From assembly GCA_041671425.1 (NCBI GenBank), contig JBAZBO010000001.1, forward strand, positions 1 through 32,890: a stretch of DNA of 32,890 bases, in the 5' to 3' direction. The notes below the pieces were generated by a model. That model was not told the DNA's origin. It searched no databases and was given only the letters and a program-made list of their open reading frames with translations. The position numbers and the translations under genes were made by a program. Positions within the stretch are counted from its first letter, which is position 1, and each line of letters starts with the position of its first letter. The stretch comes from Patescibacteria group bacterium (GTDB lineage: Bacteria; Patescibacteriota; WWE3; UBA101185; UBA10185). Positions 1 to 12,355 of this stretch are shown piece after piece.

Positions 1-1486
1 GAAAGATCCTTCAAAGCTAAAAGGGGTGCCCTGGAGTATAGATATGAGTACCTGGACCTATGAATCAGGCACTATCACCCAATTCCTACCCGATGACACA
101 ATCTTTGACACTATAGAATTCAAACCCGAGTTCTTCCTCAATCAGCTCAAGGAATATGCCTATCTGACCGCCGGGATCAAGTTTGAGATCATAGATCACA
201 AAGAAAATCTAAGCGAGACTTTTTACTTTGAGAGCGGGCTTAAAAGCTTCTTGAAATCTCTGAACAGGAACAAGGAAGTAGTAAATGAGAATGTATTCTA
301 CGTAAAAAAAGAAGTAGAGGGGATCAATGTAGAGGCCACTTTCCAATACAACGATTCGTTCAATGAGAATATCCTTTCCTTCGCGAACCATATCAAAACC
401 ACAGAGGGAGGCACACATCTGACCGGATTCAGATCTGCGCTTACCAGATCTATAAACGATTACGCAAGAAAGAACAATCTTCTCAAAGAAAAAGATCCTA
501 ACCTGTCTAGTGATGACCTTAAAGAGGGGCTTGCAGCTATAGTCTCGGTGAACCTAGACGCAAACACTCTGCAATTCGAGGGGCAGACAAAGTCAAAACT
601 GGGTAATTCCAATGTAAGGACAATAGTAGAGAATGTGGTCAGAGAAAGCATGGACGCGTATTTTGAAGAAAACCCAAGGGAAGCGTCTGAGATTATTAAC
701 AAGAACATAATAGCCTTCAAGGCCAGAATGGCAGCAAAAGCAGCTAGAGATTCTGTTATAAGAAAGGGTGTGCTGGACAGTGGGGGAGTGCTCCCAGGAA
801 AGTTAGCTGATTGCCAAGAAAAAGACCCCACTAAAACAGAATTATTCATAGTCGAGGGAGATTCCGCTGCGGGACCTGCTAAGCAGGGGAGGGATAGCAA
901 GATCCAGGCCATATTACCGCTCTTCGGTAAGATATTGAATACAGAAAGGGCTCGATTAGACAAAATGGTGAGTTCTGACAAGATAAAACCCCTAATAATA
1001 GCCATCGGTGCGGGTATTGGTGAGCAGTACAATCCAGAAAAACTTAGGTACAATAAATTGATAATAATGGCAGATGCTGACGTGGATGGTATGCATATCA
1101 TGACACTGTACCTTACCTTCTTCTATAGACATATGCCCGAGCTGATAGAGAACGGTCATATATACGTGGCAGTACCACCCTTATACAAAGCTTCTTGGGG
1201 TAAGAACAAGAAGTATTTGTTCGATGACTTTGAGAGATCAGTGTTTCTGAAGACTAGTGACGGTGACAAGGCCATAATTCAAAGATTCAAGGGTCTTGGA
1301 GAAATGAATGCCAATGAGCTTTGGGAAACCACTATGGATCCAGAAACCAGGAGACTGAAACAGATCCACGTAGGTGATGCCTCAAGAGCTGACGAGGTTT
1401 TCACAAAGCTGATGGGGGACGAGGTAGCCCCAAGGAAAAGATTCATACAAAACAACGCCAGACAGGCCAATGTAGATATTACCTAA
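1..1486 (+). CDS. gyrB: DNA gyrase subunit B, C-terminal ~490 aa (5' end outside the window; frame is open from nt 2)
   Basis: Toprim/GyrB C-terminal motifs EGDSAAGPAKQGRD, PLFGKILNTE, DADVDGMHI, FKGLGEMNANELWETTMDP. There is no stop upstream of the listed GTG at 26. Confidence 0.95.
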   Translation, partial: KDPSKLKGVPWSIDMSTWTYESGTITQFLPDDTIFDTIEFKPEFFLNQLKEYAYLTAGIKFEIIDHKENLSETFYFESGLKSFLKSLNRNKEVVNENVFYVKKEVEGINVEATFQYNDSFNENILSFANHIKTTEGGTHLTGFRSALTRSINDYARKNNLLKEKDPNLSSDDLKEGLAAIVSVNLDANTLQFEGQTKSKLGNSNVRTIVENVVRESMDAYFEENPREASEIINKNIIAFKARMAAKAARDSVIRKGVLDSGGVLPGKLADCQEKDPTKTELFIVEGDSAAGPAKQGRDSKIQAILPLFGKILNTERARLDKMVSSDKIKPLIIAIGAGIGEQYNPEKLRYNKLIIMADADVDGMHIMTLYLTFFYRHMPELIENGHIYVAVPPLYKASWGKNKKYLFDDFERSVFLKTSDGDKAIIQRFKGLGEMNANELWETTMDPETRRLKQIHVGDASRADEVFTKLMGDEVAPRKRFIQNNARQANVDIT

Positions 1487-1501
1487 TTTATAAGGAAAAC
1501 T

Positions 1502-2056
1502 ATGGATAATGACAGACACTCACATTTTCATATAATCCCTCAGGACAAAGCACCTGAATTATTGAATTTGATCGTGGAGATAGAGAAGGGGACCATGATC
1601 AAGTATGAGTACAACCATAAATATGGGATTTTGGAACTGGATAGGATACTATATGGCCCCACACAATATCCAGTGAACTATTGCAATGTGCCGTGTACTT
1701 GGAATCAGGACGATAATGACCCATTGGATGCAATACTTTACTGCTCCGGGAATCTAGTTCCGGGAACTTTGGCAAGCGGTAGGGTAGTGGGCATGATGGA
1801 GATGATAGACAATGGAGAAAAAGACCATAAAATACTCTGTGTAGCGGACAAGGATCCGAGATACGGTCATATAAAGACCTTGGAAGACCTAACGCCTTAT
1901 GAGTTAAAAGATGTTAAAACATTTATGGAGATCTACAAAATACCGCAGACCGGACCAAAAACCGTACAAGTCGGGGATTTTTTGGGTCTAAAAGAGGCAT
2001 ATAGATTTATAGAAAATGGAATTGAGTATTATAAAGAAAAGTTCATTAATAAATAA
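1502..2056 (+). CDS. ppa: Family I soluble inorganic pyrophosphatase
   Basis: Family I signature DDNDPLDAIL plus EIEKGTMIKYEY and DHKILCV. AAGGA Shine-Dalgarno 8 nt upstream. The TAA stop overlaps the gyrA ATG by 1 nt (TAATG). Confidence 0.9.
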   Translation: MDNDRHSHFHIIPQDKAPELLNLIVEIEKGTMIKYEYNHKYGILELDRILYGPTQYPVNYCNVPCTWNQDDNDPLDAILYCSGNLVPGTLASGRVVGMMEMIDNGEKDHKILCVADKDPRYGHIKTLEDLTPYELKDVKTFMEIYKIPQTGPKTVQVGDFLGLKEAYRFIENGIEYYKEKFINK

Positions 2057-4623
2057 TGCTTGATGAGATAACCGGACTTACAGCTGAAGAGCAGAACATA
2101 CTCCCCAAAGGGATCATACCCTCTGATATATCAGGGGAGATGGAGAAAGCATATCTGGATTATGCCATGAGCGTTATTGTCTCCAGAGCTCTACCTGATG
2201 TAAGAGATGGATTGAAACCGGTTCATAGAAGGATCATCTACGCCATGCAGGATCAAGGCATGGATCACACATCAAAGTTCAACAAATCTGCCGCAGTTGT
2301 GGGAGAGGTCATGAAGAAATATCACCCACACGGCGACACCTCTATATACGAAGCTTTAGTTAGGATGGCCCAGGATTTCTCCATGAGATATCCTCTGATC
2401 ATCCCGCAGGGTAATTTTGGAAGTATAGACGGTGACGGCCCCGCAGCTATGCGATATACCGAGTGTAAGATGGCCCCAATCGCAGAGGAACTTTATAGGG
2501 ACATAGATAAAGAAACTGTAGATTTTGAGATCAATGACCTTCAAAACGAAGAACCCATGTATCTCCCTTCTGTTATTCCCAACATTCTACTGAATGGTGG
2601 AACAGGCATCGCAGTAGGCATGGCAACAAATATTCCTCCTCACAATCTTACAGAGGTAATTGATGGAATAAACCTACTTATCGAAAAAGCCAGCAATATA
2701 GGAGAAGCACCTAAAAAAGATGCTCCTCAACAAATAGCCAAGGTAGATTTCTCATCCGAAGCAAATGTGGAGGATTTGGTTTCATGCATTCAAGGTCCGG
2801 ATTTTCCTACAGGTGGAATAATCTTTGACAAAAAAGAACTCATCCAGATGTATGCCACCGGAAGAGGAAAGGTGATAACCAGGGCAAGACTTGTTATAGA
2901 AGAGGATGCAAAAGGAAAGGCAAAGATCATTGTTACCGAGATACCTTATCAAGTCAATAAATCCACCTTAGTGGCAAAAATAGCTGATGCGGTGAAGGAC
3001 AAGAAGATCGAGGGCGTGTCGGATCTAAGGGATGAATCTAATAGGAACGGCATGAGGATAGTGATAGAGCTCAAAAAAGAGGCTATGCCCAAAAAAGTAG
3101 AGAACAGGCTCTATAAATATACCCAGCTTCAGGATACTTTCAACGCTAACATGGTAGCTCTAGTAAACGGGGAGCCAAAACTTCTGACTTTGAAGATGAT
3201 CCTGGAGGAGTTCGTCAGACATAGACAACAAGTAGTAGTCAAAAGGACAATTTTCTTTCTCAAAAAGGCAAAAGAGCGCGAGCATATACTACTGGGTCTC
3301 AAAATCGCTCTAGACAACCTAGACGAAGTCATAAACCTTATAAGAAATAGCAAAGATGCCGATGCAGCCAAGGCAGGACTGATAAAGAATTTCGATCTTT
3401 CAGAGATACAGGCTCAAGCTATCCTAGATATGCAGCTTAGGAGGCTGGCCGCTTTGGAAAGACAAAAGATAGAAGATGAACTTAAGCAGATCATTTCAAC
3501 CATAAAAGATTTTGAAAGCCTATTATCATCTCCAACCAGGATAATGGATACAGTAAAGGACGAACTCGCAAAGATAAAAGAGAAGTACGGTGACGAGAGA
3601 AAGACCAAAGTAGTGAAAGGAAGAGTTGGTGAGATATCCGACGAAGATCTGGTCGTGAACGAACCTTGCATTATAACAATCTCAAATAATGGTTACATCA
3701 AGAGACTCAAAGAAGGCAGCTACAAAACACAAGGCAGAGGAGGCAAAGGAGTAAGGGGACAGGAATTGAGGGAAGAGGATGAGATATCCACAATAAGAGC
3801 ATGCAATACCCACGACTTCGCATTCTTTTTCACAAATACCGGCAAGGTTTACAAAATGAGGATCTGGGAAATCCCAGAGACCATGCGCACCGCAAAAGGC
3901 ACCGCACTGATCAATTTCCTGAACATTACTCAAGATGAAAGCGTACAGGCTTTCCTGAGCACCCCTGCTGAAGTACTTGATGAGGGTAAGGGTTATATCG
4001 TGTTTGGCACCGAAAAAGGCAGGGTAAAGAAAACCTCTCTGTCAGATTTCTCTAACATAAGATCTTCTGGAATCATGGCAATAAAGATGGAGGAAGATGA
4101 TAACTTAACTTGGGTGAGATCCTCAAACGGCAAAGACGATATCATGATCACTACAACACAGGGTCAGTCCATAAGGTTCAGGGAAACTGATGTAAGACCC
4201 ATGGGCAGGACAGCGGCTGGTGTGGTGGGCATAAAGATCACCAAAAAAGAAGATAGGGTGGTAGGGATGGTAGTCATCCCAGAAGGAAGTAAAGACTGCG
4301 AGCTGATAGTTGTAACCGGAAAAGGCTATGGTAAAAGGACTAAGCTGGCCGAGTACAAGACTCAGAACAGAGGCGGCTCGGGTATAAAAACTTACAAAGT
4401 CACTGATAAAACAGGAGGAATCATTACAGCACAGATTCAGCACAGAGACATAGAAAGTGATCTTTTGATAGCAACCATCAGTGGACAAGTAATCAGAATG
4501 GGCACCAAACAGGTTCCACTTTTGGGAAGGGACACCATGGGAGTAAGGCTCATCAAGCTGGATGACTCGGACTTCGCTACCTCCGTTGCGTTATTGGATA
4601 CTCTCGAGATAGAAGAGGAATAG
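2056..4623 (+). CDS. gyrA: DNA gyrase subunit A
   Basis: YAMSVIVSRALPDVRDGLKPVHRRIIYAM, HPHGD, AAMRYTE (active-site Tyr region), and a C-terminal beta-pinwheel repeat region. 855 aa. Confidence 0.97.
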   Translation: MLDEITGLTAEEQNILPKGIIPSDISGEMEKAYLDYAMSVIVSRALPDVRDGLKPVHRRIIYAMQDQGMDHTSKFNKSAAVVGEVMKKYHPHGDTSIYEALVRMAQDFSMRYPLIIPQGNFGSIDGDGPAAMRYTECKMAPIAEELYRDIDKETVDFEINDLQNEEPMYLPSVIPNILLNGGTGIAVGMATNIPPHNLTEVIDGINLLIEKASNIGEAPKKDAPQQIAKVDFSSEANVEDLVSCIQGPDFPTGGIIFDKKELIQMYATGRGKVITRARLVIEEDAKGKAKIIVTEIPYQVNKSTLVAKIADAVKDKKIEGVSDLRDESNRNGMRIVIELKKEAMPKKVENRLYKYTQLQDTFNANMVALVNGEPKLLTLKMILEEFVRHRQQVVVKRTIFFLKKAKEREHILLGLKIALDNLDEVINLIRNSKDADAAKAGLIKNFDLSEIQAQAILDMQLRRLAALERQKIEDELKQIISTIKDFESLLSSPTRIMDTVKDELAKIKEKYGDERKTKVVKGRVGEISDEDLVVNEPCIITISNNGYIKRLKEGSYKTQGRGGKGVRGQELREEDEISTIRACNTHDFAFFFTNTGKVYKMRIWEIPETMRTAKGTALINFLNITQDESVQAFLSTPAEVLDEGKGYIVFGTEKGRVKKTSLSDFSNIRSSGIMAIKMEEDDNLTWVRSSNGKDDIMITTTQGQSIRFRETDVRPMGRTAAGVVGIKITKKEDRVVGMVVIPEGSKDCELIVVTGKGYGKRTKLAEYKTQNRGGSGIKTYKVTDKTGGIITAQIQHRDIESDLLIATISGQVIRMGTKQVPLLGRDTMGVRLIKLDDSDFATSVALLDTLEIEEE

Positions 4624-4630
4624 CGGGATT

Positions 4631-4650
4631 ATCCTCGGACGATCCTCGGA
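4631..4650. repeat. Tandem direct repeat ATCCTCGGA-cg-ATCCTCGGA (period 11 bp)
   Basis: Read directly. A closely related tandem pair, ATCCTGGGG-c-ATCCTGGGA, occurs at 6390-6408. Confidence 0.6.
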
Positions 4651-4710
4651 ACAACCCAGGTTATCCCTGATATCAACAAGAAAATCTACGAAAGGTGTAA
4701 GGACAGTACT

Positions 4711-4719
4711 TGATATAAT
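4711..4719 (+). promoter_or_regulatory. Extended -10 element TGATATAAT, 6 nt before the rnhB GTG
   Basis: TGn+TATAAT ends at 4719 and the start codon is at 4726. No Shine-Dalgarno lies between them. Same geometry as many other first genes in this window. Confidence 0.45.
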
Positions 4720-4725
4720 ATCCAC

Positions 4726-5373
4726 GTGCTTACCAAATACGAAACATTTCTTTGGGATGGGGGAATCCAGAACATTGCTGGTGTTGATGAAGTGGGTAGG
4801 GGAGCACTTGCCGGACCGCTAGTAACCGCTGCGGTAATATTGAACAAAGAACACCTCTATAGGAATAACGACGTCTCATCTGAGATCATGGAACTGTACG
4901 AGCAGATAAATGACTCCAAGCTCCTGACACCAAAGAAAAGAGAGAAGTTATCAGAGTTTATCAGAGAACATGCTGTTACCTTTTCAATATCGCAGATAGA
5001 AAATACAGAAGTAGACGATCTGGGAATATCCGCATCAACTCAGAAAGCATTCTTTAACTCCATACAAAACCTAAAGGTAAAGCCTGGGCATGTATTAACT
5101 GATACCTTTGAAATCAAAAAACTCACCAAGGCCAATCAGACCAACATCATAAAAGGTGATACCAAAAGCATAACTATCGCCGCCGCATCAATAGTTGCCA
5201 AAGTCTACAGAGATGCGCTCATGGTCAAAATGCACGAGACCTACCAAGAATATGGCTTTGACAAACACAAGGGCTACGGTACGATCTTCCATATGGGGGC
5301 GTTAAAAAAGTATGGGCCTTGCAAAATCCACCGTATTACCTTTGCTCCTTTAAGCATCAAGAAAAATCAGTAA
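4726..5373 (+). CDS. rnhB: Ribonuclease HII
   Basis: IAGVDEVGRGALAGPLV catalytic motif, DSKLLTPKKRE, GDTKSITIAAASIVAKVYRD. GTG is the only canonical in-frame start before the catalytic motif. Confidence 0.92.
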   Translation: MLTKYETFLWDGGIQNIAGVDEVGRGALAGPLVTAAVILNKEHLYRNNDVSSEIMELYEQINDSKLLTPKKREKLSEFIREHAVTFSISQIENTEVDDLGISASTQKAFFNSIQNLKVKPGHVLTDTFEIKKLTKANQTNIIKGDTKSITIAAASIVAKVYRDALMVKMHETYQEYGFDKHKGYGTIFHMGALKKYGPCKIHRITFAPLSIKKNQ

Positions 5374-6371
5374 AGGGTAGTCTCACTCTCATCAGCTTCA
5401 GATTCGGCATCTATATCTTTGTGGAATTTCTTGTGAACATCTTTAAGTTGTTTATTGGTCACATGGGTATATACCTGAGTAGTGGATACATTCGAGTGAC
5501 CCAAGAGCTCCTGCACAGACCTTAAGTCCGCACCTTCCCGCAAAAGCCCCGTGGCAAAGGTATGCCTAAGAGTATGAGGAGTGGCATCTACGGATATTCC
5601 TGACCTTAATGTATATTTTTTTACCAGCCTCTCCACACTGCGCGTTGTTAATCTCAATGATTCTCCTAAAACATCATTCACTTCCATACTCTTTCCTGAA
5701 TAGCGCAAAAATAGGGGAGTGAAAGCATCACTGCGGGTTGATAAATAACGACGTAACCAGTCCCGGGCACTGGGGCTTAAGTAAACCGTACGAAGTTTGC
5801 GACCTTTACCCATAACCGAGAACTCACCGGACTCAAGATTCACAGAATCTACATTTAAATGCACCAATTCAGAGACTCTCAGGCCTGTACTGAACAAAGT
5901 TTCCAAAATTGCCCGATCACGGATCCCCGAGCGTTTATTAAGATCCTGTGTTTCAAAAAGTCTTTTCATCTGCTCATCATTGAGCACCTTGGGTGAAGAA
6001 TCCTCTGATTTGCCCAGTATTATCTGCTCAGGTGACACCACGTTCAAACCCATCTCAACAATCAGATACTTTAGAAAAGCTCTTACGGCTATCAGAAAGG
6101 TTTTCTGGGTCGACCTTTTGAACTCCTCATGGGATTTGGAACTAATCCTACGATTTAGATTCACACGATACTTTTTAATAAGGTCTACATTCAGATCAGT
6201 GGTCAGGATTGTATCTTTCTGAAGATATTCAGACGACCAGTCCAAAAAGTCATTCAGATAGAAGTGGTACATCTTGATCGTACTCTGGGAAAGGTTCTTT
6301 TCTATCTCACAATACTCAAGGTACTGAGTCACTAGTGAACGAGTTGAATCTCTAGATGATGAATTAGCCAT
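5367..6371 (-). CDS. Xer-type site-specific tyrosine recombinase (XerC/XerD family)
   Basis: C-terminal catalytic region HTLRHTFATGLLREGADLRSVQELLGHSNVSTTQVYTHV, with an N-terminal SAM-like core-binding domain. ATG at 6371 is preferred over the listed TTG at 6377. TGA stop. Overlaps the rnhB 3' end convergently by 7 nt. Confidence 0.9.
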   Translation of the reverse strand: MANSSSRDSTRSLVTQYLEYCEIEKNLSQSTIKMYHFYLNDFLDWSSEYLQKDTILTTDLNVDLIKKYRVNLNRRISSKSHEEFKRSTQKTFLIAVRAFLKYLIVEMGLNVVSPEQIILGKSEDSSPKVLNDEQMKRLFETQDLNKRSGIRDRAILETLFSTGLRVSELVHLNVDSVNLESGEFSVMGKGRKLRTVYLSPSARDWLRRYLSTRSDAFTPLFLRYSGKSMEVNDVLGESLRLTTRSVERLVKKYTLRSGISVDATPHTLRHTFATGLLREGADLRSVQELLGHSNVSTTQVYTHVTNKQLKDVHKKFHKDIDAESEADESETTLY

Positions 6372-6641: not shown

Positions 6642-6669
6642 ACGTCGTATAATGTATGTTTAACGACGT
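6642..6669. other. Candidate dif-like Xer recombination site, ACGTCGTATAA-TGTATG-TTTAACGACGT
   Basis: 11-6-11 architecture with arms 9/11 reverse-complementary. The inner ATAA and central TGTAT resemble E. coli dif (GGTGCGCATAA-TGTATA-TTATGTTAAAT). Lies 271 bp from the xer start. Confidence 0.45.
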
Positions 6670-6849
6670 ATCGTGGGGTTTTAAACCTAAACCCGCATAC
6701 GAGACACATAATGTTTAGGGGAATACACTGGGAAAGGTTGAGCACACAATTATCAATTAATTAAGATATACATTTCTTTATCATTTATTCTCCGTATTTA
6801 TTTTCATGAATTTGCGAACTGCAGGCCTTAGGATCCAAGGCCACAGGAA

Positions 6850-6858
6850 TTATCCACA
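6850..6858 (+). promoter_or_regulatory. Perfect DnaA-box consensus TTATCCACA (single copy)
   Basis: Exact 9-mer read in the long intergenic region. I saw only one additional weak (7/9) match, TGTGGACAT, near 6453. Confidence 0.3.
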
Positions 6859-6876
6859 AAGTGAGTAAATTAAAAG

Positions 6877-6930
6877 TATGACAATCATACTATGACAACT
6901 ATACCCTATAATAATAGTGACAATTATCAC
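6877..6930. repeat. Abutting 14-bp direct repeats TATGACAATCATAC / TATGACAACTATAC, plus a third degenerate copy GTGACAATTATCAC
   Basis: Read directly. Copy 1 sits inside the palindrome GTATGA-caa-TCATAC, and copy 3 is a near-palindrome. A 9-bp inverted repeat TACCCTATA(6902-6910)/TATAGGGTA(6948-6956) brackets copy 3. Confidence 0.6.
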
Positions 6931-6986
6931 CTCAAGCCTATAACTGCTATAGGGTACTTCCCCACTCCGGTGTATGTCTCAAAAAA

Positions 6987-7787
6987 CTAGGGTTTGAAAA
7001 TGAGTACAAGTAGTAAAAATATAGCTAATAGAAATACATACTCAAAGATAATTGATTTATTTAGCCTGTTCTTATAATGCAGCACCATGTAGTTTAGACC
7101 AAACATCAGAGATCCCGCACACAGCAGGGACCTAAGGAACGACTCTGCTGGTATAAAGGAAACAGCTAGGGCCGAAGAAAAGGCAAAGAAGGCTACCATT
7201 AAACCCATCATAATGCTCTCCCCTGCTCCTATCCTCACAACTTCTCTGTCAAAACCAAGAGTCCATAGTAAATAAAGCGCAAATAAAAATGATGATGCAC
7301 CCACTACCAGATCTTGCATAATAAAATTGGCGGGGATCTTAAATACACCTGCAAAGAAGGGTATGGCTATAATAACTATCAGTATCTGAGCCCAAGTAAT
7401 AGCAACACGATATAGGGGTATTGTATCCTCCTTGTCTTCCACCACAATGAACACATTATTAACCAGACTAATGAGATACAACGAAATTGAGGAAAAGACC
7501 AAGGCAGATACTCTGAAGGGCACACTCAGGTTAGGAAAGAAATATAGTGAAAATATTGTCCCTATGAACAGATGTAACGGGAGTAGAACCAGAGGAAAGG
7601 CGTTCTTATAATTAATACCTGGATATTGAGTAAATATTGCCCCTACTATACAGAACAGATTAGTGATCAACACCTTGTAAGAGAAGCTGATGTTGGGTCC
7701 GCCCCTTGAGAAAAGCCACAGTATAAGCAATAAAGACAGCAAAGAGTACAGGATATACTTCTGTCTTTTCTGAAGTAAGAATTTCAT
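6987..7787 (-). CDS. Polytopic integral membrane protein, unknown function
   Basis: 266 aa made almost entirely of hydrophobic helices. Starts 3 nt after the yebC stop, so probably co-transcribed. I recognise no family motif. Confidence 0.7.
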   Translation of the reverse strand: MKFLLQKRQKYILYSLLSLLLILWLFSRGGPNISFSYKVLITNLFCIVGAIFTQYPGINYKNAFPLVLLPLHLFIGTIFSLYFFPNLSVPFRVSALVFSSISLYLISLVNNVFIVVEDKEDTIPLYRVAITWAQILIVIIAIPFFAGVFKIPANFIMQDLVVGASSFLFALYLLWTLGFDREVVRIGAGESIMMGLMVAFFAFSSALAVSFIPAESFLRSLLCAGSLMFGLNYMVLHYKNRLNKSIIFEYVFLLAIFLLLVLIFKP

Positions 7788-7790
7788 CTC

Positions 7791-8330
7791 TTACTGCCTT
7801 GCTTCGTAGTTGGAAAAGACCTCTGAGACATCTTCCTGAGAAGCAAGCTCATCATGCAAATTCTCAACCTTAACAAGGTCACCATCTTTCAGTGGAATAG
7901 TAAAACTTGGGTTCTCAGGGTCAGCAAATATATATGCTGTGCGTCCACTTGCCCCCATGGACCCACCACTTTTTGTAAATAAATTCCTTATCTCAGATAC
8001 GGTCCTATACTTATTATCCGTGACTGCTCTTACCAAAAAGGCCACACCAGCAGGACCATAGCCCTCATACACTACTTCTTCCATGGTTCTACCATCAGCT
8101 GTAACACCCAAACCTTTATCAATAGCTCTTTGAACATTATCCCTAGGCATACCCGCTTCTTTTGACTTTTCTACAGCCAATCTAAGGGAAGGGTTTGTAT
8201 CTATCTCTCCCCCACCCTCTTTTGCGGCAATTGTTATCGCTCGGCTGATCTTGGAAAATGTCTGGCTCTTTCTGGCATCTGTTATCGCTTTATCCCTTTT
8301 TATCTTCGACCATTTATTATGACCGCTCAT
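7791..8330 (-). CDS. yebC: YebC/PmpR (TACO1) family protein, short form (179 aa)
   Basis: Canonical N-terminus MSGHNKWSKIKRDKA at the ATG at 8330, plus YEGYGPAGVA and DNKYRTVSEIR. The 66-aa N-terminal extension in the ORF track has no homology and runs into the divergent TPR gene. Confidence 0.88.
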   Translation of the reverse strand: MSGHNKWSKIKRDKAITDARKSQTFSKISRAITIAAKEGGGEIDTNPSLRLAVEKSKEAGMPRDNVQRAIDKGLGVTADGRTMEEVVYEGYGPAGVAFLVRAVTDNKYRTVSEIRNLFTKSGGSMGASGRTAYIFADPENPSFTIPLKDGDLVKVENLHDELASQEDVSEVFSNYEARQ

Positions 8331-9089: not shown

Positions 9090-9815
9090 CTATCTTAGAT
9101 CGTCATCTTCCAGACTTAGAACAATTGGTTGATCAGTCTTGAGAAGCTCCTTCTTTTGCGTTGGTTCTTCCTTCTTTGGTTCAGGTTTCTTCTCCACCAC
9201 CACTGGTGGATTTGGCTTCTTCACTTCAGGCTTTTTTTCCGCAACCATCGGTTTAGGCTGGGGTTTCTTCTCCACTTTCACAGCCGGGATTGGCGTACGT
9301 GGCATATCAAGAACCACTTTCTTCTCCTCTTCACCCTTGATAATCTTCAAAGCCGCAAAAGGGACTTTTAGATTGTCAGCCGGAATCAAAGCCGTAGCTT
9401 CAACGTTCTGCTGGGCATTATGATACAAAGCAGCAGTATCGGAGATCCTGTAAGACCCACAGTCGGCTAGGATGTACCAGACATCTTCTTTCTTCGAAAG
9501 CACACCACGGATCTCTTTTGGTTCTGACTTTCCTATGTTCTTGAAGAAAGGCTTTCCATCTTCTTCAACCATCTTCATCTTATCGCCAAACATAAGCATG
9601 GACTTTGCGGCATAGTTGGCAGGAACAGGAAATCTCTCACCTGACTCAGACACCATGGATTCACCATCAAAGGTACCTGTTTTGCCTGGTATTTCCTCAA
9701 ACGCCTTCTTTTCCTCCTCCTCTATGGTCCTCATTACGCTCATTGCAATATTAAGATGTTTCTCAAGAGATTTAAGTTCTGACTTAAGTTTGAATAATTC
9801 ACTTTTACTAGACAC
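9090..9815 (-). CDS. Hypothetical protein with N-terminal coiled coil and Lys/Pro/Glu-rich C-terminal tail
   Basis: The long ORF lies immediately downstream of the ATPase gene. GTG at 9815 has AGGAGG 9 nt upstream. It overlaps the upstream gene's 3' end, stop codon included, by 8 nt. The listed TTG at 9884 would overlap that gene by 77 nt. The tail contains EKKP-type repeats. Confidence 0.65.
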   Translation of the reverse strand: MSSKSELFKLKSELKSLEKHLNIAMSVMRTIEEEEKKAFEEIPGKTGTFDGESMVSESGERFPVPANYAAKSMLMFGDKMKMVEEDGKPFFKNIGKSEPKEIRGVLSKKEDVWYILADCGSYRISDTAALYHNAQQNVEATALIPADNLKVPFAALKIIKGEEEKKVVLDMPRTPIPAVKVEKKPQPKPMVAEKKPEVKKPNPPVVVEKKPEPKKEEPTQKKELLKTDQPIVLSLEDDDLR

Positions 9816-12312
9816 TACTATCGACCTCCTTTCCAGACCTGTTTTCCAGGGCAATTGCCATTCCTTTATCGAATCTTGTTTCAAGCCACTTCCCTACCTT
9901 CTCCTCTACGTACGCCCTGTCACTACCATACTTTTGTCTGCTCATCTCAATTACTCTTTGCTTGTTATCACTCTTTGGGACTATACATGTCTCAGGATCC
10001 CAGGGCAACAATATCCTTGCAGAAAAAGGCAGCGAGGTCATCCCATCTATCATTAGTTTTATATACATGTGAAATCTTTCAAGAGATATTATGTCGGTCT
10101 CATCAAAATAAGGGGCAAACTCGTTCGTAAGTGCCCTTGCATCAGGGGCGCCTAGGGAAAACGTAGCAATAGTGCCCACATTACCGAAAACCGCCTTTAG
10201 AAGCTCCTCAGGCAGTTGAGCCGTATACTGGTGGGTCAGATACAACCCAAGTTTATATTTTCTAGACTCAGAAAGGATCGTTTCAAAACTTCCAGTCGCA
10301 AAGTTCTGGAATTCATCAACGTAAAGATAGAAAGGCACTCTTTGTTCGTAAGGTATATTGGCCCTTTGTAAGGCCATGAACTGAATCCTTGATACAAGCA
10401 AGGCACCCAACAGATTTGCGTTGTCGTCCCCTATCTTGCCTTTAGACAGGTTTATGAGCAGTATCTTCTTATTGTTCATGATATCAGCCAGATCTATTGT
10501 AGATTTCTTTTGGCCAAGGATATTCCTGATGGTAGTAGAGGCCAAGAATCTATTAACCTTATTCTGGATAGGAGCTATTGCTTCGGTTACCAGTTTTTGG
10601 TTGCCTTTCATGGCTTTGTACTCAGAATCCCAAAATTTCTGAACCATGGGATCTTTCACAAAGTGGAGTATGTATCTAAGATAGTTATCATCTTCCAAAA
10701 GCCTTGTTATACCCAACATAGTAGTACCGGGTACCTCAAGGAGAGTAAGTAGACAATAGTTCAGCATGTATTCCAATCTTGGACCCCAAGAGTAGTCAAA
10801 CTGCTTTTTTATAGCTGCAACCAAGGCAGAGGCCATAAGGTTCTTCTGGGATACATCATCCATTTCCAAAAGGTTCAACCCCACCGGTCTCTCTGTGTCC
10901 GAAGGATCAACAAGAACCACATCATCCATCCTATTATCAGGTATCCTTTCCAATATCTTCTCTATGGTTTCACCATGCGGATCCAAAACTCCCACCCCAA
11001 AACCTTTCTGGATATCCTGAGTAGCCATATTCTCTAGAAGTGTTGATTTACCTGTGCCAGACTTTCCAATAAGGTACATGTGCCTTAATCTATCATCACC
11101 ATCTTTAAGCCCAAACCTCACCTTCTTGCTCCTATAGATGGTCTCACCAATATAGGTACAGTTATCAACTGGGAGGGTTGATGGTGGCTCTGATTTCTTG
11201 GAATACAACCATGATATGTTTGGCGTACCTAGTTCTGATGAGGGAAAATGGTACAAGGTAGCCATCTCCTCTATTGTCAATACATGGGCCTTATCTGGAT
11301 CAAAAGTTCTGTTCTTGTAATCTTCAAATCCCAGGGGACCTTCTTCAACCACTCTGAAGCTATTAGTATGAGCGGTGTAGAACTGGTTGAATGAGGCAAT
11401 CAAGGACCTTTTGTTAGAGTTTATCCTTTCTGGGGTCTCGGCAGAGGACATGATCCTAATCTGGGCCTTATATCCCATCATGGAAAGCTTGTTCTCAATG
11501 GCTTTAAGCTCAAGATCCTGGGTAGGAGATATATCTACTGGTTTCAAGCTTGGTTTGCTGTAATCGGTCTTTGTCTCTGCATTTGTAAAAAAACCAGTTA
11601 TGATACTAATCATTATTTCCTTAAACTCAGTAAGGATATTGTGGGATAAATCGGTAAGTTCCTTGGACATTCCTGACCTACCAAAGGGATCCTTTCCGGC
11701 TCGTACTGAATCCACATATCCATAACCCTCATCCTGCCAATTATCCGGGCTGGGCATCACCACGAACTGCAGCCAGACACTCTCACCTTCCTGAAGCTCT
11801 GACAAAGAAGATGTCACAGCGGAGAGGGAATCTACTTCAAGCTCCCTAAATGTCTTGATAGGAAAGAATTGCTTTTTGTTGGGAACCAAGGTAACAACAT
11901 CATGACTATCCCTAAAGGGCACCTTGTCAGTGTAGTCCTCAGTCACCCTAATAACGGCTTTTGGATATTGGGCGTATATCTGACTTTCTACAAATTTCAA
12001 AATGTCGTGAGGAACTGCCACGTAAAACCTAATACCTTCAGCGCTGGAAAATGCCATCTCAAATGAGAAATGTTCCTGGTTGGCATAATCCTCTTTCAGA
12101 AGACCGTGAAGTGATGCAAACATGCCCTCTGCACCAAGAGTAGTACCCTGAGCTTCCCCACCCTCCTCTTCATTCTTAGGTACTTGTATCTCCAGCAACT
12201 CAAAATCTGATGTTCTTTTTTGTGATGAGCCTTTCTTGAAAAAACGCGCAAGGAACCTAACGCCAACAAAGGCAAGAAGCGCAAAAGCGAAATAGTAAAA
12301 AACCCCGTTCAT
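9808..12312 (-). CDS. Membrane-anchored VirD4/TraD/TraG-like (FtsK-HerA superfamily) P-loop NTPase
   Basis: N-terminal TM helix (GVFYYFAFALLAFVGVRFLARFF), Walker A YLIGKSGTGKSTLL, Walker B FYLYVDEFQNF, THQYTAQL. The ~400 aa N-terminal region is of unknown fold. ATG at 12312 preferred over TTG at 12327. Confidence 0.8.
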   Translation of the reverse strand: MNGVFYYFAFALLAFVGVRFLARFFKKGSSQKRTSDFELLEIQVPKNEEEGGEAQGTTLGAEGMFASLHGLLKEDYANQEHFSFEMAFSSAEGIRFYVAVPHDILKFVESQIYAQYPKAVIRVTEDYTDKVPFRDSHDVVTLVPNKKQFFPIKTFRELEVDSLSAVTSSLSELQEGESVWLQFVVMPSPDNWQDEGYGYVDSVRAGKDPFGRSGMSKELTDLSHNILTEFKEIMISIITGFFTNAETKTDYSKPSLKPVDISPTQDLELKAIENKLSMMGYKAQIRIMSSAETPERINSNKRSLIASFNQFYTAHTNSFRVVEEGPLGFEDYKNRTFDPDKAHVLTIEEMATLYHFPSSELGTPNISWLYSKKSEPPSTLPVDNCTYIGETIYRSKKVRFGLKDGDDRLRHMYLIGKSGTGKSTLLENMATQDIQKGFGVGVLDPHGETIEKILERIPDNRMDDVVLVDPSDTERPVGLNLLEMDDVSQKNLMASALVAAIKKQFDYSWGPRLEYMLNYCLLTLLEVPGTTMLGITRLLEDDNYLRYILHFVKDPMVQKFWDSEYKAMKGNQKLVTEAIAPIQNKVNRFLASTTIRNILGQKKSTIDLADIMNNKKILLINLSKGKIGDDNANLLGALLVSRIQFMALQRANIPYEQRVPFYLYVDEFQNFATGSFETILSESRKYKLGLYLTHQYTAQLPEELLKAVFGNVGTIATFSLGAPDARALTNEFAPYFDETDIISLERFHMYIKLMIDGMTSLPFSARILLPWDPETCIVPKSDNKQRVIEMSRQKYGSDRAYVEEKVGKWLETRFDKGMAIALENRSGKEVDSSV

Positions 12313-12317
12313 TTTAT

Positions 12318-12355
12318 AAAACAACAAAAACCCCCGCCCTAATTTGGAGCGGGGG
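12318..12355 (-). terminator. Rho-independent terminator-like hairpin after the LCP gene
   Basis: Minus strand reads CCCCCGC-(11 nt loop)-GCGGGGG followed by TTTTTGTTGTTTT. The T-tract ends 5 nt before the ATG of the next gene. Confidence 0.6.

Follow-up and report, generated by a model that had tools for sequence, protein, structure and literature searches.

An Xer-type site linked to its recombinase gene was identified in the genome of a Patescibacteria group bacterium of the WWE3 lineage. The 28-bp element is probably the cognate core site of the adjacent Xer, and site and gene together would constitute a module that is conserved across the Patescibacteria (CPR). That the element is an Xer-type site linked to xer is well supported by comparison with other genomes, and its most likely cellular role would be that of a dif analogue, in the resolution of chromosome multimers. 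No description of a dif or Xer site from Patescibacteria/CPR was found in the literature searched, and a survey of dif sites in 16 phyla included no CPR genomes (Kono 2011, PMC3025954). The analysis covers a 32,890-nt stretch of DNA (GenBank assembly GCA_041671425.1, the whole of contig JBAZBO010000001.1), which is referred to here as the window, and related loci from other genomes, metagenomes, and phage contigs.

RESULTS

The 28-bp element lies upstream of xer and has the layout of an Xer core site

The first-pass annotation of the window had proposed a dif-like site with an 11-6-11 layout upstream of an Xer recombinase gene. The window sequence confirmed the element at 6642-6669, its layout, and the reverse-complementarity of its arms at 9 of 11 positions. 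Its placement just upstream of the xer start codon (ATG at 6369-6371) was also confirmed, with 270 nt between the gene and the site. Written by parts, the element reads ACGTCGTATAA-TGTATG-TTTAACGACGT. The features of the site and the gene are as follows.

6642-6669, + strand: 28-bp Xer-type core site with an 11-6-11 layout, ACGTCGTATAATGTATGTTTAACGACGT
6642-6652, + strand: left arm ACGTCGTATAA, predicted binding site of an Xer monomer; positions 3-6, 8, 10, and 11 are nearly invariant in 47 sites
6653-6658, + strand: asymmetric central region TGTATG, predicted strand-exchange region; TRTAWC-like in hosts, more varied in phage copies
6659-6669, + strand: right arm TTTAACGACGT, predicted binding site of a second Xer monomer; positions 18-21 and 23-26 are nearly invariant in 47 sites
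5367-6371, - strand: xer, encoding a 334-aa tyrosine recombinase of the XerD/XerC/XerA type with a Pfam Phage_integrase domain (E = 3e-42) and a SAM-like N-terminal domain

The 28-mer is unique in the window when up to 3 mismatches are allowed. The window contains five 11-6-11 sites with at least 9/11 complementary arms, and 5.1 ± 2.0 are expected from first-order Markov random sequences with the same dinucleotide make-up. The first-pass annotation had also pointed to a resemblance to E. coli dif. This resemblance did not exceed chance, since the element is identical to E. coli dif (reference sequence checked against MG1655) at 15 of 28 positions and eight unrelated 28-mers of the window score 16 to 18 of 28. 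Because these features are at chance level within the window, the significance of the site derives only from its conservation in other genomes.

The adjacent gene encodes a catalytically intact recombinase that scores below the XerC and XerD cut-offs

The window Xer scored below the cut-off of each NCBIfam model considered: 242.9 bits for XerD (cut-off, 329.6), 242.1 bits for XerC (cut-off, 335.15), 205.7 bits for archaeal XerA (cut-off, 220), and 132.6 bits for XerS (cut-off, 267). The closest solved structures are those of E. coli XerD (1a0p, 144 bits) and Pyrococcus XerA (4a8e, 137 bits), and XerH is a distant relative (58 bits). Since the XerC and XerD scores are nearly equal and both are below the cut-off, the window Xer is, as judged by score, an XerC/D/XerA-type enzyme specialized toward neither XerC nor XerD. 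By the same measure, the window system is placed outside the XerS, XerH, XerA, XerC, and XerD families. The catalytic residues R165, K189, H266, R269, H292, and Y301 are invariant among 25 orthologues and, judged by these residues, the enzyme is catalytically intact.

No second tyrosine recombinase was found in the window or in the 20-kb loci. The equal XerC and XerD scores and the near symmetry of the arms are only suggestive of a single Xer paralogue. The R-Q residues of XerD, in the region that contacts FtsK, align to K-D in the window Xer. This change is uninformative about activation by FtsK, because XerS also lacks the R-Q FtsK-contact residues of XerD (PMC5357621).

The site is conserved beside orthologous xer genes

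We sampled 80 loci that encode relatives of the window Xer from GTDB species-representative genomes and located sites by a Hamming scan followed by a position-weight matrix. A strong single copy of the site (21 to 46 bits) was present in 46 of the 80 xer loci; the other loci scored 13 bits or less, and many of those without a strong site have no upstream DNA. The second-best matrix match in any locus was no higher than 12.5 bits, and there was one copy in each 20- to 33-kb locus and one in each metagenome stretch. The first-pass annotation had named the conservation of a xer-adjacent 11-6-11 site in relatives as a check on its proposal, and the proposal withstood it.

The WWE3 loci match the 28-mer at 27 or 28 of 28 positions, and the CPR-wide consensus is AYGTCGYAYAA-TRTAWC-TTTWRCGACRT. 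Information content is 1.5 to 2 bits at positions 3-6, 8, 10-12, 18-21, and 23-26 and falls to approximately 0.1 bit directly outside the 28 bp, showing that conservation is confined to the site. In every site-bearing locus the site lies upstream of xer, at a distance ranging from 18 to 7452 bp. The gap is 18 to 914 nt in many loci and is larger where variable genes have been inserted. The surrounding gene order is also conserved (dnaB-efp-rluD-...-yebC -> [site] xer -> <- (rnhB) gyrA <- gyrB), with the site between the yebC gene cluster and xer. The site, xer, and this gene order are kept across classes in which Xer identity is 45 to 79%.

Two sets of loci show the site beside xer in other contexts. 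Three loci that lack yebC (L045, L049, and L056) have the site 18 to 106 bp from xer. In loci labelled Chloroflexota, both arms are changed together, to TTCG...CGAA or TTCC...GGAA, approximately 35 nt upstream of xer. Because these sites with concerted arms lie beside the Chloroflexota-labelled xer genes, the module seems to predate the CPR. Concerted variation, together with the single copy in each orthologous locus, also upholds the earlier proposal that the site is linked to xer as in single-recombinase modules. At the level of individual Chloroflexota-labelled MAGs (L036, L039, L050, L045, and L049), the 11-6-11 site is 18 to 35 nt upstream of the orthologous xer, and the paired arm changes can be read as GGTTCG...CGAACC and ATTTCC...GGAAAT. 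The dif sites that Kono et al. predicted for Dehalococcoides in 2011 were considered as relatives of the motif and rejected, as the sequences are unrelated.

Because the 80 loci had been picked by way of xer, metagenome contigs were searched with the arms alone. At least 120 contigs matched, and those listed have one site each. Among the matches listed, at least 57 contigs have xer, yebC, or the membrane-protein gene alongside the site; on 46 the context is different or undetermined, and a further 17 do not extend far enough for a judgment. The exact 28-mer of the window occurs on 19 of the contigs among the matches listed; 18 of these have the same gene order, and 1 is too short. This motif-first scan confirmed the conservation of the site beside orthologous xer. 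The orientation of the central hexamer relative to xer and the flanking genes is inverted in WWE3 compared with Microgenomates and other CPR (L010-L080).

Phage contigs carry the site, often near terminase genes

The arm pattern was found on at least 120 IMG/VR contigs, compared with 9 for a composition-matched control pattern in which the right arm was reversed instead of reverse-complemented. Of the 120 matches listed, 116 reached a full-site score, which includes the outer positions that had not been searched. Among the matches listed, the copy is intergenic on 99 of the 116 full-site phage contigs, and the host gene order is present on none of the site-bearing contigs. The nearest large open reading frames (ORFs) most often encode terminase large subunits; portal, head, endolysin, and primase families are also represented. 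A tyrosine-recombinase-like ORF was present in the stored flanks (median, approximately 3.4 kb per side) of only 3 of the 116 listed phage loci, although a phage integrase does adjoin some copies (L096). The phage copies span more than 100 contigs (IMG/VR loci L084-L203), and four of those listed (L100, L133, L138, and L180) have the WWE3-type arms of the window.

The central hexamers of the phage copies are more varied than those of hosts, and many are unlike host hexamers. This difference argues against simple integration, and the variety of phage centers favors recombination between two copies of the phage site (circularization or the resolution of multimers) no less than integration. No element or prophage flanked by two full sites was found in the 46 host loci. 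The phages that carry the site probably exploit the host Xer. One 9,208-bp IMG/VR contig (L143) has a 14-bp terminal overlap, is apparently circular, and bears one full site. It also bears a second copy in direct repeat, which has the same left arm and center and a degenerate right arm; a site pair of this sort is the kind left by integration or resolution events. An inverted site pair on L134 and L178 was rejected as a sign of inversion, because the two contigs are one sequence in opposite orientations.

A DnaA box and short repeats flank the site

The 320 bp of noncoding DNA that separate the site from the membrane-protein gene contain the following features.

6824-6842, no strand assigned: perfect 19-bp palindrome GGCCTTAGGATCCAAGGCC, between the DnaA box and the site; found in the window only
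6850-6858, + strand: perfect DnaA box TTATCCACA, separated from the site by 180 nt and located on its far side with respect to xer
6877-6957, - strand: noncoding block with the repeats TTGTCATA (6877-6884 and 6891-6898) and TTGTCACT (6916-6923) and CCTATAR-like motifs

A perfect DnaA box in the same orientation and on the same side, 30 to 920 bp from the site, was found in 29 of 46 related loci, and DnaA boxes near the site numbered 44 in total, compared with 6.6 expected. In other CPR loci, the motifs CCTATART, TTTTCACG, GATATAGT, and AAACCCGAA are enriched 15- to 25-fold within 1 kb of the site, and in WWE3 the repeated motif takes the form TTGTCATA. The conserved block (6824-6960 in the window; within 1 kb on the yebC side in L001-L080) consists of a G-rich start, short repeats, the DnaA box, and AT-rich DNA, and it has the look of an origin or an accessory region. 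Short repeats and DnaA-box-like sequences have been described at a CPR origin, in a paper on Peribacteria (PMC4736985). None of the hallmarks of oriC (a cluster of DnaA boxes, diverging genes, and a switch of skew from - to +) was found at the locus. Given the single box, the converging genes, and the unswitched skew, we do not read the block as an origin. It could instead be an accessory region for Xer, by analogy with cer/psi, or a regulatory region linked to DnaA.

The other side of the site, toward xer, differs in content between loci. In 19 loci, half-sites resembling the left arm (GTCG[CT]A[ACT]AAT) overlap with what is likely the -10 box of the xer promoter, 10 to 40 nt before the start codon, and further half-sites occur within 250 nt of xer, for a total of 84 compared with 19 expected. 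The half-site loci include L004, L017, L018, L021, L022, L025, L027, L028, and L032-L035; the window contains none. These half-sites hint at autoregulation by Xer. The interval between the site and xer contains 1 to 7.5 kb of lineage-specific cargo in 10 loci (L010, L011, L014, L018, L034, L035, L041, L043, L047, and L064), and 43 of the 69 ORFs located between site and xer are singletons. Annotations of the cargo include cohesin/TIG surface proteins, trehalase, transaldolase, a glycosyltransferase-kinase fusion, and radical-SAM enzymes. The cargo breaks up an otherwise rigid gene order, and the interval resembles a hotspot of insertion beside the Xer site. The possibility that its genes are integrated phages was examined and rejected, as no phage-hallmark or mobile-element family of Pfam was matched by any of the 20 ORFs tested.

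Synonymous-site skew shows no strand switch at the site

Bulk GC skew was higher on the left flank of the site than on the right in 40 of 41 loci, and genes converge on the site in 28 of 41 loci and diverge from it in none. The window has the local layout given in the first-pass annotation, with + genes on the left (gyrB, ppa, gyrA, and rnhB) and mostly - genes on the right. That annotation had taken the convergence as a weak fit to a terminus. This reading was not sustained, because the convergence is a deeply conserved gene order and synonymous-site skew has the same sign on both sides. Since the loci share one ancestral gene order, gene convergence and steps in bulk skew are not independent observations. 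Bulk skew mixes coding and replication effects, and third-position and four-fold-site skew were therefore computed separately.

Of 38 loci, 36 had a positive third-position GC skew of the top strand on the left side of the site and 34 on the right side; the sign switched in only 4. Four-fold-site GC skew of the top strand was determined in 39 loci, within 10 kb on either side of the site, for four classes defined by side and gene strand. The values were 0.05 for + genes on the left, 0.27 for - genes on the left, -0.035 for + genes on the right, and 0.28 for - genes on the right. A combination of codon-bias and strand terms fits all four classes only when the leading strand is the same on both sides. 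A terminus model predicts approximately -0.05 and -0.27 for the + and - genes on the right, and an origin model likewise fails. A single fork passing through the locus is the only model that fits the skew. In the window, gyrB, gyrA, and rnhB have a skew like that of the + genes hisS, EamA, and prfA, located 12 to 16 kb away across the site. No replication-strand switch was detected within approximately 10 kb on either side of the site; in the window, the same holds for 26 kb in one direction. The bulk GC-skew step and the gene strands were accordingly rejected as evidence for a terminus, being explained by conserved gene order and codon-position skew. Converging genes with a step in bulk GC skew can thus mimic a terminus while reflecting only conserved gene order.

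Canonical dif sites closely track the shift point of strand skew (Kono 2011, PMC3025954), and no such shift point is found locally at this site. Since the site is off any local strand-bias switch, it may work away from the terminus or independently of FtsK, by analogy with archaeal XerA/dif or plasmid cer/psi.

Several further observations concern replication. By synonymous-site skew (1-5373 compared with 6987-32640), the leading strand is the - strand over the whole window, and gyrB-ppa-gyrA-rnhB would therefore be a conserved block transcribed head-on to replication. A search of all 323 loci for dnaA and dnaN gave no match, which is weak evidence since the query sequences were approximate; neither gene was found beyond gyrB. 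An E. coli dif control for the skew method, with 31 genes, was too noisy. Position within contigs of 0.9 to 1.1 Mb was tried and discarded as a measure of distance from the origin; it is uninformative because contig starts are arbitrary. Complete or near-complete genomes bearing the site include JBMORU010000001.1 (1.11 Mb), JBPOHV010000001.1 (0.93 Mb), Ga0208373_1000006 (0.90 Mb), and CAZFRF010000001.1 (0.94 Mb).

DISCUSSION

The reading that we favor, in which the adjacent Xer acts on the 28-bp element as its core site, has to be weighed against several alternatives. Of these, an operator and a mobile-element site both seem unlikely, to a similar degree. An operator for the transcription of xer or its neighbors, bound by a dimeric regulator such as the YebC-family protein encoded nearby, by DnaA-associated factors, or by Xer solely as an autorepressor, would explain the palindrome without recombination. 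It would agree with the half-sites over the xer -10 region (19 loci; 84 half-sites compared with 19 expected), with the presence of yebC next to the site in most CPR loci, and with the conserved DnaA box and repeats that adjoin it. However, the site tracks xer rather than yebC in the three yebC-less loci and in the Chloroflexota-labelled loci, and in many loci 1 to 7 kb of unrelated genes, in either orientation, separate it from xer. More than 100 phage contigs carry the site by terminase genes with no such regulator nearby, and an 11-6-11 layout with an asymmetric center is that of a tyrosine-recombinase core site. The half-sites in xer promoters and the adjacent DnaA box do leave room for a regulatory component. 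The abundance of the site on phage contigs, in some cases beside a phage integrase (L096), raises the possibility that it is mainly an attB/attP or resolution site of CPR phages or plasmids, the chromosomal copy being an integration hotspot or derived from one rather than a site of dimer resolution. The highly variable gene content of the site-xer interval (43 of 69 ORFs being singletons), half-sites near xer that could be relics of integration, and a location off any skew switch are consistent with such an origin. Yet site, xer, and gene order are kept across classes at 45 to 79% Xer identity, as is typical of a housekeeping function, the interval ORFs tested include no phage hallmark genes, and in 0 of 46 host loci do two full sites flank an element.

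Two other explanations are less probable still. We regard it as very unlikely that the site is part of a replication element, that is, an origin or a DnaA-titrating or DnaA-reactivating locus defined by the box, the repeats, and the AT-rich DNA. The perfect DnaA box, which 29 of 46 loci have less than 1 kb from the site and always oriented alike, the 15- to 25-fold enrichment of four other short motifs, and the short repeats and DnaA-box-like sequences of a published CPR origin (PMC4736985) are points in its favor. Nevertheless, there is a single DnaA box and no cluster, genes converge on the locus rather than diverge, and both bulk and synonymous-site skew contradict an origin. The accompanying motifs are also missing from most phage copies, and the distance from box to site varies from 30 to 920 bp. 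Least credible, and hardly tenable, is an RNA or DNA hairpin such as a terminator of the upstream membrane-protein gene. The outer 7 bp of the arms could pair, but variable arm positions show no compensatory changes. For the position pairs 1/28, 2/27, 7/22, and 9/20, complementarity was 0.54, 0.46, 0.59, and 0.12, compared with 0.54, 0.38, 0.47, and 0.13 expected under independence. Positions 9 (C) and 20 (T) are consistently noncomplementary, a conserved asymmetry that, with the absence of covariation between the arms, fits two related protein half-sites and not a base-paired stem. In addition, the site has no T-tract, a promoter/terminator scan was empty there, the stop codon of the upstream gene is 317 nt away, and Rfam has no match at the site; for the intergenic region, scans against Rfam and for tRNAs produced nothing beyond two chance matches below threshold.

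Taking the element as the core site of the adjacent Xer, we infer binding, cleavage, use of a single recombinase, and a role in dimer resolution. One Xer monomer would occupy each 11-bp arm, and two sites, borne by a chromosome dimer or by a pair of phage genome copies, would synapse as a tetramer. Tyr301 would then cut at the borders of the asymmetric 6-bp center, and two ordered pairs of strand exchanges would proceed via a Holliday junction and add one crossover. A more speculative extension, which we advance tentatively and consider doubtful, is that CPR multimers are resolved at a non-terminus Xer site within a composite locus, without positioning directed by FtsK, and that phages share the core and use the host Xer. 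The composite locus would comprise the short repeats, the single consensus DnaA box, and the 28-bp core, and its models would be cer/psi, with one-sided accessory sequences, or archaeal XerA/dif. On the phage side, a large and diverse set of CPR phages would carry the core beside terminase genes, and the host Xer would circularize, resolve, or integrate their genomes.

Comparison with known Xer systems

By protein type and site layout, the closest known system is archaeal XerA/dif, and by the joining of gene and site into one module the closest are XerS/difSL and XerH/difH. Archaeal XerA is a closely similar recombinase that acts on a 28-bp 11-6-11 site. It is a single recombinase, as we infer for the Xer of the window. 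In some archaeal species xerA and dif form a module, the system is FtsK independent, and dif frequently lies at a point other than 180 degrees from the origin (PMC5357621). The window differs in that its host is bacterial, its Xer scores below the XerA cut-off, and its arm sequences are different. In the XerS/difSL system of streptococci and lactococci, as in the window, gene and site form one module and the arms are nearly symmetric but biased (PMC5357621). However, difSL is 31 bp with an 11-bp center, whereas the window site is 28 bp with a 6-bp center, and XerS belongs to a distinct 356-aa family (132.6 bits for the window Xer against a cut-off of 267). Moreover, difSL is at the terminus and FtsK dependent, whereas the window site is without a local skew switch. 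The XerH/difH system of Helicobacter and Campylobacter has a single recombinase, a site near its gene, and an asymmetry of the arms that orders cleavage (PMC5357621); the window has the proximity of gene and site and an arm asymmetry, and a single recombinase would act there as well. The XerH/difH system differs in its recombinase (58 bits for XerH against 144 for XerD) and in its arms, which are unrelated in sequence. XerCD/dif has the same 28-bp 11-6-11 layout, an A-rich inner arm end, and a TGTAT-like center, and the window Xer has an XerD-like fold and the same catalytic residues. In contrast, the window protein matches XerC and XerD equally well by score without reaching either cut-off, has K-D in place of R-Q, and is paired with a site that has nearly alike arms, is linked to its gene, and lies off a local skew switch.

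Recombination away from a terminus also takes place at the plasmid sites cer and psi and at loxP of phage P1, the site of Cre. In cer and psi, one flank of the core bears accessory sequences, and P1 has loxP close to its packaging site. The locus described here resembles cer/psi in having a one-sided conserved block of motifs like those that bind proteins beside a 28-bp core, but the spacing of block and core varies between loci, from 30 to 920 bp. The phage copies of the 28-bp site resemble P1 loxP in that they adjoin terminase genes. Integrative mobile elements exploiting Xer (IMEX), such as CTXphi, VGJphi, TLC, and the gonococcal GGI, likewise have a dif-like site, encode no recombinase, and depend on the host Xer (PMC5357621). 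Similarly, 113 of the 116 listed phage loci have no recombinase in their stored flanks. In contrast to IMEX, however, the 46 host loci yielded no integrated copy with a site at each end, many phage centers are unlike host centers, and the elements are tailed-phage contigs with terminase genes rather than filamentous phages.

If the 28-bp Xer site is indeed single copy and phylum wide, it would provide a fixed landmark for the curation of CPR assemblies. If phages do use it, the 28-mer would be a sequence tag for assigning phage contigs to CPR hosts, to which they are otherwise very hard to link. The site is also a substrate for asking whether a bacterial Xer works away from the terminus or without FtsK, and in the few cultivable CPR organisms it could be used to excise markers.

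Other conserved genes near the site

Two other genes near the site were noted. The gene ruvC adjoins the site in 13 of 83 host xer loci, a related gene context that favors the core-site reading, and lies between yebC and the membrane-protein gene in nine WWE3 relatives (L001, L003, L004, L007-L009, and L081-L083). It is absent from all 32.9 kb of the window, where the corresponding spot is 7787-7791. An 839-aa protein encoded at 9808-12327 on the - strand has an N-terminal membrane helix and a HerA/FtsK-superfamily ATPase domain (DUF87, TrwB/VirD4-like, with a weak match to CedD). Its gene is kept in the WWE3 gene order a few kilobases from the site, and the protein could be a DNA translocase.
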